Part shown: positions 1-3,512 of the stretch, one piece after another
Layout: every line of letters starts with the position of its first letter
Numbering within the stretch: the first letter of the stretch is position 1
Notes under the pieces: model-generated
The model's database searches: none
Told to the model about the DNA's origin: nothing
Seen by the model: the letters and a program-made list of their open reading frames with translations, nothing else
Source: Terriglobia bacterium
Lineage (GTDB): Bacteria > Acidobacteriota > Polarisedimenticolia > Polarisedimenticolales > JAIQFR01
Direction of reading: 5' to 3'
Assembly: GCA_963748015.1 (NCBI GenBank)
Contig: CAVVHE010000009.1
Coordinates: forward strand, 448,001-512,000
Length of the DNA: 64,000 nt
Made by a program: the position numbers and the translations under genes

Positions 1-529
1 CGCCGAGGGTGTTCGCCGTCCAATAGAACAGCCCGCAGCCGAGCACCATGAGCAGCCAGATCGACAGCAGGCCCGCGACCGACCGGCCGGTGACGAAATC
101 CACGAGCGCGCCTGGCGAGACGCTTCGCGACGCGGCCTGGCGCCGCTTCGCCGGCGCCGCACCGGCGATCGAGGACGACTCCAGCGCCCCGCCGTTCTCC
201 GTCCAATCTTGGAGGCCGCCGTGGTAGTGGCGCACGCGTGCGTAACCGAGTTCGCCGAGCAGGCCGACCGCCTGCTCGCCGAGCGGTCAGGTGAAGCCGC
301 CGCAGTAGACCGCGATCTCCCGATCGAGGTCCGGCAGGACCTCGCGGGCGCGGCCGGTCACCTCGGCGAGGGGCAGGCTGATCGCGCCCGGGAGGTGCCC
401 GCCCGCGAAGGACTCGGCGGGCAGCACGTCCACGATCGCGAGCCTTCGGTCGCCGATGCGGCCGGAGATTTCCTCACGGGAGATCTCGCGACCGGCGACG
501 GGAGCGAGGGAGGCGCTCGACGAGGTCAT
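1..529 (-). CDS. Rhodanese-domain putative selenoprotein (in-frame UGA 289-287) fused to a membrane domain; runs off the window edge
   Basis: Rhodanese motifs (IVDV...GHLPGAISLP...IAVYCGGFT) continue in frame past the TGA as PLGEQAVGLLGELGYARVRHYHGGLQDW, then a hydrophobic helix LLSIWLLMVLGCGLFYW. Confidence 0.85.
256..286 (-). promoter_or_regulatory. Putative bacterial SECIS element
   Basis: Perfect 9-bp stem CGAGCAGGC/GCCTGCTCG with a GGUCG loop; loop begins 17 nt after the UGA. Confidence 0.75.
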
Positions 530-536
530 TCCCGGG

Positions 537-1166
537 TTACTTCTTTCGCTTGTACACGATCTCCATCGACTTGAATTCCTTCCCGTCCGGTCCCTTGTCG
601 AACATCTCGGACTTCCAGTTGTCGGCGTCGATGATGGTGTCCAAGCCGCGAAGGGTCTTGACCTTGCCGGTCATCAGGTCCGGCCCCTCGCTGACGGAGG
701 CGAAGGACCGCGTCTTCGGGTTGTACGTGCCCTTCCCGACCATGATCCCCGTGCCCATGTTGTCGATCCAGGCGAAGACGAACTTCTTCTTCAGGGTGTC
801 GTATCCCGAGATCCCGCGCCCCTCGAACGGCATCCCGTTGAAGGTGCTGGTCGTCATGTCCTCGAGGTAGCGGCCGCCCATGATCATTCGCATCTCGGAC
901 GTGCCATCGGAGACCTGGGGAGGCGCGCCCGGCGCCATCCAGAGCGTTACCTTCGCGCTCCAGGACCCGGCCCTCTGCGCGAGCAGCTTGTGCTCTTCCC
1001 CCGGCGTCATGTAGACGTTCCAATTTTCCATCATCGCCTGCTCCTCGGCGCTCATGGCGGGCTCTTTCTGCCCCTCCGCCGCTGCGCGAGCGAGAACGGA
1101 CGCGAGAGAAAGGGTGAAGACGGCCACGGCCACACCGAGCTGCAACGCACGGGTTGTCGATCTCAT
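537..1166 (-). CDS. DUF1579-family secreted protein
   Basis: Signal peptide; PGEEHKLL...GSW, MGGRYL, GYD...WIDNMGTG motifs. Confidence 0.85.
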   Translation of the reverse strand: MRSTTRALQLGVAVAVFTLSLASVLARAAAEGQKEPAMSAEEQAMMENWNVYMTPGEEHKLLAQRAGSWSAKVTLWMAPGAPPQVSDGTSEMRMIMGGRYLEDMTTSTFNGMPFEGRGISGYDTLKKKFVFAWIDNMGTGIMVGKGTYNPKTRSFASVSEGPDLMTGKVKTLRGLDTIIDADNWKSEMFDKGPDGKEFKSMEIVYKRKK

Positions 1167-1360: not shown

Positions 1361-2695
1361 CTAGCCCAGCTTCGCCAACCGGTTCTTGAGGGACTCGATG
1401 CCGCGGGCGGAGACCTGCGACTTGGGCAGCGTTTCGGCGTAGGCGAGCGCATCCTGGAGCGCGGTCTTCGCCGAAGCGGTGTCCCCCTTCTTGTCGTAGA
1501 TCCTGGACTTCGTCACGAAAACCTGGATCTTGCGCGGGCCGTACACGAGCTTCATCGCGCGGTCGGCGGCGGCGAGGGCCTCGTCGTAGCGGCCCAGCTC
1601 GTTGAGAGCGATCGCGAGCCGCGCCGGCGGGTTGTAGTCCAGCGGGAGGTCCTTCTCGGACTGCTCCAGCATCGGGATCGCGTGCGCCGGATCACCGGAC
1701 TCGATCGACGCGTTGAGCCGGCCGGAGTCGAAGACCGCCCGGCCTTCGGGGGTCGTCGCGCGCGCCGCCTCGCCGTCGAGGAAGGCGAGCCACTCGGCCG
1801 CGACCTTCCTGGCGCCCTCCTTGTCGTCCGCGTCCTTCCGCGAACCCAGAAGCGTCGCGTAGAGCCCCGAGATGTCGTCCCCGGGGATGTCGATGCGAGG
1901 CGGGGCGAGAGCGTTCCGCACCGCGGCCTCGAACTCCGCGACGGCCGCCGCCTTCGCGGGCCCCTCGAGGCTCGTGGCGCAGTCGAGCCCGGAGAGCGCG
2001 ACGTTGGCGTAGTGCTGGTTCCTCTCCTTCGGCAGCTCCGCGCGGGCGAGGTCCACGCACTCCTGCGCGGTTTCCTTCTTGCCGAGGAGTCCGAGCAGCG
2101 ACTCGACGGCGCGGTCGCGCGGAGCCCATCCCTGCGGGGCCTTCGCGAGCGCGTCCTTGAACGCCGCGATCGCTTCTTCCTTCTTGCCCGCGCCCTGGAG
2201 CCGGTCGGCCGAGGCGAGAACCGCTTCCGCGCCGCTCCCCTTGTTCGCGTAGGCGCTCTCGCCGTCGTCGAACAGCTTCTCGAGCTGCGGCACGTTGGCG
2301 CTGCCGACCCAGCGCAGGACCGCCTGCTCGCTCTCGGGATCGATCACGAGCAGGGTGGGATAGGCCTCGATCGGGTACTTCTCGAGGAACGCCGCGTTAG
2401 CTTCTTTCTCGGTGTTGACGGTCAGCCAGACGAACCGCCCGGCTTGCCTTTCGAGCGCGCGATCGGTGAACACGAACGCGCGCATCGACTGGCAGCTGTG
2501 TCACCAGGGGGCCCAGGCGTCGACGAAGATCGGCAGCTTCTTGGTCCTCGCGTCGGTCAAGGCGCGCGCGTAGTCGTCCTCGACGAAGGGAAGGACCTCG
2601 GCGCGCTTCGCGCCCGGGGAGCCCGCGCAGGACGCGGCGAGCATGCCCGCGGACGCGATCGCCAGTCCGGCGGCGATGGCGTGAACGATTCGCAA
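1361..2695 (-). CDS. Thioredoxin-like (UxxC) + TPR lipoprotein, putative selenoprotein (in-frame UGA 2503-2501)
   Basis: GAGGAGG RBS and TTG start; lipobox LAASC; FVDAWAPW-TGA-HSCQSM reads in frame into the 374-aa ORF with a Trx-fold remainder (YPT) and TPR-like helices. Confidence 0.88.
2451..2500 (-). promoter_or_regulatory. Putative bacterial SECIS element
   Basis: Hairpin TCGA-T-GCGCGCG...CGCGCGC-TCGA with an apical GUUC-type loop about 29 nt after the UGA. Confidence 0.55.
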
Positions 2696-2918
2696 CGGAG
2701 CCTCCTCTCGCGGGCGGTCTGAACCGCGACCGCCCGAACCCATGCCGGGGGAGATGATCCCACGAATCCCGCGAGGACGGCAACCGAGCGGGGGTACAAA
2801 AACCGACGCGGATTGCCGTCCCCTTCGGCCCGACGGGAGTTGCGACAACGGGGCTCGGATGCGGTCCCGTTTGGGGTATGCTCTGCCGGCGTCGGGAGCG
2901 GAGGGCGTCGGGACGGCG

Positions 2919-3512
2919 ATGGCTAAGCTCAGGGACCGGGTGAGCGTCGCGTGCGTCGTGCTCGCGGCCGCGCTGGCGGCGACGGGCGCGGCGGCGGCCC
3001 CCGTTTCTCCGGCGTCCGCGAAGCGGGCGGAGGAGCGGCTCGTCCAGGCGAAGGCGCCCCCCTTCTCGGAAGGGATCTTCCCCTGCAAGGAATGCCACGA
3101 CAAGCCGGGGGACAAGACGCGGCGCGAGCTGAGCTTCCACGAGGACATCCAGGGGATGTTCGACCACGACGCCGAGCACCGGTGGTGCCTCGACTGCCAC
3201 GACAACGCCGACCGCGACCTGCTGCACCTCTCGAGCGGCGACACGCTCCCGTTCACCGAGTCGTACCGCCTGTGCGGCCAGTGCCACGGCGACAAGTACC
3301 GCGACTGGCGCGCCGGGGTCCACGGCAAGAGGGTCGGCCACTGGGACGGCGAGAAGACCTACTTCCTGTGCGTCAACTGCCACAACCCGCACTCGCCGCG
3401 CTTCAAGGGAGTCGCCGAGATCGAGGAGGCGGGTCAGAAGACCACCGCCCCGACCCAGGAGCTCCTGAAGCCGGAGCCGCGCCCCCGGCGGCCCGAGGAG
3501 CAGCGGAAATGA
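2919..3512 (+). CDS. Periplasmic tetraheme c-type cytochrome
   Basis: Signal peptide; four CxxCH motifs (CKECH, CLDCH, CGQCH, CVNCH). Confidence 0.9.
   Translation: MAKLRDRVSVACVVLAAALAATGAAAAPVSPASAKRAEERLVQAKAPPFSEGIFPCKECHDKPGDKTRRELSFHEDIQGMFDHDAEHRWCLDCHDNADRDLLHLSSGDTLPFTESYRLCGQCHGDKYRDWRAGVHGKRVGHWDGEKTYFLCVNCHNPHSPRFKGVAEIEEAGQKTTAPTQELLKPEPRPRRPEEQRK

Follow-up and report, generated by a model that had tools for sequence, protein, structure and literature searches.

The window analysed here (G000:C9:448001-512000; 64,000 nucleotides (nt), to whose numbering all positions refer unless a contig or locus is named) begins with the 5' part of a minus-strand gene, which very probably encodes a selenocysteine (Sec)-containing rhodanese fused to a K+ channel. 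An open reading frame (ORF) of 80 amino acids (aa) at 287..529 ends with ...VYCGGFT at a TGA codon (289-287, codon 81), and a previous sequence-only reading of this DNA had described it as a rhodanese that stops in the middle of its domain. When the TGA was read through (...VYCGGFT-U-PLGEQAVGLLGELGYAR), the frame continued with PLGEQAVGLLGELGYARVRHYHGGLQDW..., the Pfam Rhodanese domain (PF00581, aa 18-111) was completed by the C-terminal part that had been missing, and no further stop was encountered up to window position 1. The transmembrane (TM) helix which the same reading had placed downstream in this frame corresponds to residues 151-174 of our structural model. In the adjoining DNA, the complete frame was found to comprise 402 codons (L001:821-2029) and to end with a TAG stop, and a genome-wide search returned a single match over residues 1-402 with '1 TGA' inside. 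The starts of the orthologues are located 72-82 codons ahead of the Sec codon. Considering the data detailed below, it is very likely that the gene encodes a single selenoprotein of 402 residues, in which a real Sec codon lies within one rhodanese-channel protein, and that gene callers cut it in two at this codon. The features described in the sequence-only reading were confirmed, and its interpretation is supported.

A six-frame search of 41 related genomes yielded 14 full-length matches (48-72% identity, G000 included), and all 14 carried exactly one in-frame TGA, which was always located in the same alignment column (VYC[GA]xxT-U). Similarly, 12 genomes of a phylum sample (401 genomes) gave a match at E <= 1e-40, and one TGA was present in each of the places that cover the rhodanese part (10/10). 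The 14 sequences were combined with those of six more genomes from the phylum sample and of one named metagenome-assembled genome (MAG) to a set of 21 genome orthologues, which share 47-72% identity with the query. Here, we found the TGA at the same column in 21/21 sequences, and both the reading frame and the conservation of the residues run straight across it. A single-protein search of genome contigs recovered one true orthologue only, which originates from a MAG labelled Acidobacteriota. For the metagenomes, we evaluated the best 80 of 414 confirmed loci, i.e. those closest to the query. The Sec column was TGA in 77 of these loci and TGT or TGC in the remaining three, and the column of the catalytic Cys was a Cys codon in every locus that covers it (79/79). 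Contigs of the sequencing run X1 that overlap positions 72-279 and 268-584 differ from the window at 3 and 8 sites, respectively, none of which falls on 287-289 or into the hairpin described below. These contigs are of low depth and add minor support, and the TGC or TGG codons that had been considered as alternative readings do not appear in the one that covers the codon.

The best 120 database proteins comprise 62 full-length homologues with both domains and 58 short forms. In the full-length group, column 76 is always Cys (62/62), and column 81 is Cys in 52 proteins, Ser in seven, Trp in two and Gly in one. A search for Cys-containing homologues at the UGA column had been proposed in the sequence-only reading, which also expected gene callers to split the gene. 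The short forms (252-366 aa) bear on the latter point, and most of them begin just past column 81, in the middle of the rhodanese domain. Their starts were called at assorted Met, Val or Leu codons (MGEQAVGLL, MQAVGLL, MGLL, VSLL, MGY), and such varied starts within the domain are the pattern of a Sec gene split by gene callers. P0003, which is 99% identical to the product of the present gene, begins at VRHY.... In two database proteins, P0042 and P0046, the Sec column is occupied by Trp (CGKFT-W-P/Q). Of the relatives for which DNA sequence was available, the nearest ones (L101, L111, L123, L126; 67-77% identity) have TGA there, and for this reason the Trp may be a gene caller's rendering of TGA under another code.

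Downstream of the UGA, we recovered the perfect 9-base-pair (bp) stem (278-270 / 264-256) that had been noticed in the sequence-only reading; the loop (GGUCG, 5 nt) begins with G and starts 17 nt after the UGA. The conserved core of this hairpin (275-259; 6 bp + 5 nt + 6 bp) begins at a distance of 11 nt from the UGA, and a 17-nt hairpin placed 11 nt from the UGA has a parallel in fdhF. For the 71-nt fold, a minimum free energy (MFE) of -35.9 kcal/mol was calculated (z = -2.68), and 2/200 shuffled sequences were as stable. By itself, the hairpin stands out only slightly against a genomic background of 70% G+C, but its conservation across the orthologues lifts it above chance. When the 14 orthologues were aligned from the TGA, RNAalifold predicted a stem of 6 bp between columns 15-20 and 26-31, in which 84/84 cells are paired, and the changes within this stem involve one CG-to-AU double change, six AU-to-GU changes and two GC-to-GU changes. 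The loop consists of five nucleotides (N-G-U-N-N), of which the G and the U are invariant in these orthologues. The 9-bp version of the stem was paired in 80% of the cells as compared with 25-51% when the 3' partners were slid. Among the 77 metagenome Sec loci, all six stem pairs are formed in 67 and at least five in 76; G occupies loop position 1 or 2 in 77/77, and the mean MFE of the region +10..+40 is -14.4 kcal/mol. According to the relevant passage of a 2026 review, a bacterial selenocysteine insertion sequence (SECIS) has a loop of 3-9 nt, an upper stem of 4-16 bp, a G within the first two loop positions, a distance of 16-37 nt between UGA and loop and an MFE <= -7.5 kcal/mol (PMC13188914). 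The present hairpin lies within all of these ranges with its 5-nt loop, its stem of 6-9 bp, its spacing of 17 nt and its MFE. An Rfam scan of window positions 1-700 (E up to 10) returned three chance microRNA rows and no SECIS family.

Sec and Cys forms of similar divergence were then compared at the amino acids that the hairpin encodes. Gly84 is present in 64/77 Sec forms vs 7/52 Cys forms, and the corresponding values are 72/77 vs 11/52 for Val88 and 75/77 vs 18/52 for Leu90. Residues that are fixed in the Sec forms and freer in the Cys forms are as expected for an RNA constraint on top of the coding sequence.

The genome was found to contain the Sec genes that the sequence-only reading had named. 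A tRNA-Sec with the anticodon tca was detected by aragorn and is the only tRNA found with this anticodon, and selB (302.6 bits), selA (506.8 bits) and selD (361.6 bits) all scored above the NCBIfam cut-offs. The selD gene is a Sec gene as well (SCAG-U-ASKMG), and a G+C-rich hairpin follows 11 nt after its UGA, just as it does in the rhodanese-channel gene. Of the long frames in this genome, 2993/4984 are closed by TGA, which is the most frequent stop codon here and also the actual terminator of 7/14 orthologous genes. With a conserved hairpin and the full Sec machinery, UGA-81 sits in a context suited to SelB-dependent Sec insertion.

In the alignments, C76 falls on the active-site loop Cys of both 1yt8 domain 2 (CAGRTRS) and 6mxv (YCGsGFRS). 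The U81 column, which follows five residues on, is occupied by Arg in 1yt8 domain 2 and by Ser in 6mxv. Cys76 is invariant in both 96/96 Sec forms and 55/55 Cys forms, the loop residues between Cys76 and U81 (GGFT, ASPT, GGPT) are uncharged and the residues right after U81 read PLG, HLG or DAG. As judged from these alignments, the catalytic Cys is retained and Sec is added as its neighbour in the loop (C-x4-U) instead of taking the catalytic-Cys position. This refines the Sec-rhodanese proposed in the sequence-only reading, since the predicted Sec lies five residues after the retained catalytic Cys and is not the catalytic residue itself.

Following the rhodanese domain, the protein contains a basic linker, a 2-TM K+ pore, a long helix and a five-helix C-terminal bundle with a CxxC motif. 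The rhodanese part was recognized by Pfam PF00581 (E 3.4e-14; 51.3-53.5 bits vs a cut-off of 22.2), by a PDB sequence search that returned the single-domain rhodaneses 1yt8, 6mxv and Alr3790, and by Foldseek, which matched 3nhv (probability 1.00, root-mean-square deviation 1.3 Å) and 3ilm with deviations in the range of 1.3-1.5 Å. Residues 194-243 match Pfam PF07885 (Ion_trans_2; E 1.1e-14; 54.4 bits vs a cut-off of 22.5), and in the PDB sequence search KirBac3.1 and KcsA were matched over aa 160-276 (KirBac3.1 over aa 160-244) with E-values of about 2e-6 to 5e-6. A Pfam search at E up to 1 detected Rhodanese, Ion_trans_2 and Ion_trans only, with no RCK/TrkA or Kef domain. The selectivity filter TATSLGYGD (aa 204-212, core TSLGYGD) is encoded outside the window, as are the pore helix, TM2 and the C-terminal domain. 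When the residue counts were extended to 151 sequences (96 Sec forms and 55 Cys forms), we found the filter residues G209, G211 and D212 in 151/151, with Y or F at position 210, and the motif C373-x-x-C376-V-P in 149/151; both exceptions are truncated contigs.

An AlphaFold2 model, which was built from 39 aligned homologues, reached a mean predicted local distance difference test (pLDDT) score of 90.7 and a predicted template modelling (pTM) score of 0.58. It consists of an alpha/beta rhodanese domain, a disordered basic linker (aa 122-134), a short helix ahead of TM1, TM1 itself (aa 151-174), a pore helix (aa 191-206) and a very long helix starting at aa 219, which represents TM2 and runs on into the five-helix C-terminal bundle. 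Because of the pTM of 0.58, the relative placement of the domains in this model is unreliable. Folded alone, the C-terminal domain gave a pLDDT of 93.5. A Foldseek comparison of this domain with the PDB returned nothing at E <= 0.001, and the best Z in VIA-align was 11.4, which is under the value of about 13 advised for helical bundles, so that no fold was assigned. Taken together, the channel part appears to be a complete 2-TM K+ pore of the KcsA/KirBac type with a GYGD filter, and K+ conduction is predicted. The sequence-only reading had proposed a Sec-rhodanese tethered to a membrane domain that is possibly channel-like. Its channel part was borne out by the K+ channel encoded in the adjacent DNA (Ion_trans_2), but the word 'tethered' understates what is a complete 2-TM pore plus a CxxC domain.

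Among the names attached to the database sequences of this family are Acidobacteria, Vicinamibacterales, NC10, Deltaproteobacteria, Binataceae and Methylococcaceae. Parts of the stretch occur in metagenome runs from sediment and wetland, and contigs of the sediment run X1 match it at >=95% identity. The raw-read run X21 yielded 0 reads on it. The combination of a Sec-rhodanese with a K+ channel is common in soil and sediment bacteria. A FastTree analysis, which is a quick method applied here to a biased sample, covered 161 rows with the Sec column masked: 96 with Sec, 55 with Cys, 7 with Ser, 2 with Trp and 1 with Gly. The tree required 24 state changes, counted without direction, and at least 16 Sec changes were forced by well-supported branches; the Ser forms constitute one clade. 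Sec/Cys switching thus appears to be frequent in this family. Two paralogues, L048 (G259:C174) and L050 (G131:C428), match residues 123-400 and 136-399 only. They consist of the channel and the CxxC domain without a rhodanese and have no internal stop, and G131 also carries a Sec-rhodanese form. In addition, shorter rhodanese-only matches with one in-frame TGA were observed in related genomes (G006:C153:4609-4980, G037:C65:32671-33000, G023:C1:276126-276482), and these may represent other forms of rhodanese selenoproteins.

Selenoproteins of the rhodanese type were already on record in 2005 (PMC1088965), and rhodanese-related sulfurtransferase selenoproteins are also mentioned in a passage of the Olavius symbiont paper (PMC1976440). 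The catalogue passages of the 2026 review list five rhodanese forms, namely UxxS, UxxG, CxU (form 3, 'LYCAU', NF041203), UxxG and the UxxxxU of TsoB (NF045694), so that forms 1, 2 and 4 are UxxS/UxxG proteins (PMC13188914). TsoB is described there as a rhodanese/DsbD fusion-like selenoprotein ('rhodanese form 5') and is attributed to Haft and Tolstoy 2025. These catalogue passages list no CxxxxU rhodanese form, and the word 'channel' is absent from the main text of the review (PMC13188914). Similarly, the words 'rhodanese', 'potassium' and 'channel' are all absent from the main text of the deep-Sep paper. The present protein stays below the cut-off of every model in NCBIfam release 20. Full-text literature searches returned no rhodanese-channel fusion and no selenoprotein channel; Haft and Tolstoy 2025 and supplements were outside their scope, and a mention there is possible.

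As far as the catalogue entries go, TsoB is the closest relative in kind. Both proteins have Sec five residues after the first redox residue (x4 spacing) and both are joined to a membrane protein, but TsoB carries Sec at both positions and has a DsbD-like partner (PMC13188914), whereas the present protein has Cys at the catalytic position and a K+ pore. This comparison is one of motif and spacing and not of individual residues aligned with C76 and U81. The TsoB model is the second-best NCBIfam match of the rhodanese part (E 9e-8; 30.6 bits vs a cut-off of 805), and TsoB was not found in the present genome. Forms 1, 2, 3 and 4 share with our protein the rhodanese fold, a Sec in or beside the active-site loop, an origin from Sec-decoding bacteria and the existence of Cys homologues. 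However, the catalogue lists no membrane or channel domain for the UxxS/UxxG proteins (forms 1, 2 and 4), in contrast to C76-x4-U81 with Cys at the catalytic position here, and form 3 (NF041203) differs by its CxU spacing and is likewise listed with neither a membrane nor a channel domain (PMC13188914); the present protein scores 17.9 bits against its cut-off of 115. Compared with these catalogued entries, our data suggest that two features are new, a Sec that would act as second, resolving residue beside a retained catalytic Cys and the channel as partner domain.

The Cys-form orthologues (e.g. P0013, P0020, P0052) share the three-domain architecture, the CxxC motif and the filter with the present protein (42-53% identity), but they have CxxxxC in place of CxxxxU and freer residues after this motif. 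They are annotated as 'rhodanese-like domain-containing protein' or 'rhodanese-related sulfurtransferase', and our literature searches retrieved no paper on them. With KcsA and KirBac3.1 (PDB 3eff, 1f6g, 7n9l), the protein has the pore helix, the GYGD filter and Ion_trans_2 in common, whereas the cytoplasmic domains are unrelated and these channels lack a rhodanese, Sec and the CxxC bundle. KirBac channels also have a short helix before TM1, as is the case in our model. KcsA is gated by pH and KirBac channels respond to lipids. In the glutathione-gated efflux systems KefC/KefB and in the RCK-gated MthK, a K+ pathway is opened by a cytoplasmic domain that reads the thiol/electrophile state or a ligand. 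The relation of our protein to these systems is a functional analogy only, with no RCK/TrkA or Kef domain detected in its sequence.

Both TM helices have basic residues on either side, N-terminal as well as C-terminal, and the two termini of KcsA-type 2-TM channels lie in the cytoplasm. On these two grounds, both the rhodanese domain and the CxxC bundle would be placed in the cytoplasm. We infer, tentatively and as a possibility that falls somewhat short of probable, that the rhodanese domain is a redox or sulfane-sulfur sensor which gates the K+ pore. In such a case, the domain would function as a sensor rather than as a bulk enzyme. Cys76 would be oxidized or loaded with sulfane sulfur (persulfidated), and the selenolate of U81 would resolve the modified Cys76 to form an S-Se bond inside the loop. 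This change of the loop might be passed to the gate via the linker and the slide helix, or via the CxxC bundle with a possible thiol/selenol exchange, and the K+ flux would then track the thiol or reactive-sulfur state of the cell. The protein might even be the first selenium-dependent ion channel, i.e. a K+ channel opened by a Cys-S/Se-Sec switch in a rhodanese sensor and possibly relayed to the CxxC bundle, and we put this fuller proposal forward with marked reserve.

Several observations weigh against these interpretations. The figure of 77 out of 80 overstates the share of Sec in the family, because the 80 metagenome loci are the most query-like ones. The seven Ser forms and the one Gly form at column 81 show that the family can exist without a second redox residue at this site. 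The hairpin overlaps the codons of the conserved residues QAVGLL, so that its conservation could partly reflect selection at the protein level, and the DNA control from Cys forms involves three loci only, one of which keeps 6/6 stem pairs without the G-U loop. As to the gating idea, the mutual placement of the domains in the model is uncertain (pTM 0.58), and the PDB comparisons of the C-terminal bundle returned no informative relative. Finally, selenium incorporation and the expression of a full-length product are predicted from the sequence.

Instead of gating the pore, the rhodanese domain of a genuine selenoprotein might be an enzyme for sulfur or selenium transfer or for the reduction of a small substrate, which is membrane-anchored or coupled to ion flux and which uses the CxxC domain as electron or sulfur partner. 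A precedent is provided by TsoB, for which the review lists a UxxxxU rhodanese paired with a DsbD-like membrane electron transporter (PMC13188914). Moreover, rhodanese domains are usually catalytic, Cys76 occupies the catalytic position, and the pair of motifs CxxxxU and CxxC is reminiscent of a thiol/selenol relay. We nevertheless regard this alternative as rather unlikely. In canonical rhodaneses, basic loop residues bind thiosulfate, whereas the loops GGFT, ASPT and GGPT lack basic residues. The GYGD filter is intact in 151/151 sequences, which argues that conduction matters, and because copies with channel and CxxC domain but without rhodanese exist (L048, L050), the rhodanese looks like an added regulatory module.

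Readings that dispense with Sec fare much worse than the selenoprotein with a gating or enzymatic rhodanese. If the TGA were a true stop, the locus would encode an 80-aa rhodanese fragment and a separate channel starting from a downstream GTG or ATG, and the public gene calls do follow this scheme, as with P0003 (VRHY...) and dozens of relatives that start in mid-domain. However, such a split would cut the rhodanese fold in half, the called starts vary among the sequences, the TGA column is Cys in uninterrupted homologues, and the conservation of frame and residues crosses the TGA in 21 genomes; we consider a true stop very improbable. A pseudogene, a sequencing or assembly error or a reading of TGA as Trp or Gly by an alternative code would be consistent with the Trp found at this column in P0042 and P0046, but the nearest DNA relatives of both proteins have TGA there. 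Since the same TGA recurs in 21 genomes and in 77 contigs from metagenomes, neither an error nor a recent nonsense mutation can account for it, and the X1 contig 268-584 shows no difference at 287-289. Recoding is also opposed by TGA being the commonest stop and by the only tca-anticodon tRNA found being tRNA-Sec, so that this group of explanations is extremely improbable.

If the gating proposal is true, the K+ flux and membrane potential of soil and sediment bacteria would respond to reactive sulfur species or to oxidants, and the availability of selenium would tune an electrical property of the cell. A rhodanese that gates the pore would also offer a simple model of the redox or sulfane-sulfur control of a K+ channel. 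Because Sec/Cys switching appears to be frequent, natural U/C pairs should be available for testing the contribution of selenium to the sensor. Since the gene is cut in two in public gene calls, and 58 of the best 120 database proteins are truncated entries named 'potassium channel' or 'hypothetical', current annotation misrepresents both the selenoproteome and the set of channels in many bacteria from soil, sediment and wetland.

The coordinates of the gene, of its features and of the neighbouring genes are summarized in Table 1.

Table 1. Features of the rhodanese-channel gene, its surroundings and selD (window positions unless a contig or locus is given)
Feature	Position	Strand	Basis or remark
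Putative selenoprotein gene, 5' part (codons 1-176 of 402)	1..529	minus	translated with TGA=U
Remaining part of the gene	before window position 1, G000:C9:447324-448000 (L001:821-1500)		ends in TAG
Start codon ATG	527..529	minus	7 nt after the TAA of the upstream DUF1579 gene
Rhodanese homology domain, aa 18-111, split by the TGA	197..478	minus	Pfam PF00581, PDB and Foldseek matches
Cys76 (TGC), canonical position of the catalytic Cys	302..304	minus	aligned to 1yt8 domain 2 and 6mxv
TGA predicted to be read as selenocysteine U81	287..289	minus	five residues after Cys76 (CxxxxU); column conservation, Cys in homologues
Candidate SECIS hairpin	256..278	minus	9-bp stem 278-270 / 264-256, loop GGUCG 269-265; fold and orthologue conservation
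Short helix ahead of TM1, aa 139-147	89-115	minus	AlphaFold2 model
First TM helix of the channel, aa 151-174	8..79	minus	AlphaFold2 model, KirBac3.1 match
DUF1579 protein, secreted, 209 aa	537..1166	minus	Pfam PF07617, E 3.2e-44
Second candidate selenoprotein	1361-3328, TGA at 2503-2501	minus	in-frame TGA joins a lipoprotein-like N-terminal ORF to a TPR ORF
selD, predicted Sec gene (SCAG-U-ASKMG)	G000:C4:2112236-2113171 (L012)	minus	motif read through UGA

The DUF1579 gene ends 7 nt before the ATG of the channel gene, and this short distance suggests that the two may be co-transcribed in G000. A conserved operon of the two genes was rejected, since tblastn found the pairing only in G000 (1/24 loci). 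When the neighbouring ORFs of the 21 orthologue loci were clustered, no universal partner emerged, and one upstream gene was common to 6/21 loci.

The second candidate selenoprotein is located about 830 nt upstream of the channel gene on the same strand (stop at 1361, channel ATG at 529). Read through its TGA, it would contain ...FVDAWAPW-U-HS-C..., a thioredoxin-like UxxC motif. The Pfam domain Thioredoxin_7 (aa 74-155, E 1.2e-9) spans the TGA, and a stable hairpin is predicted after this codon (MFE -32 kcal/mol, z -3.0).

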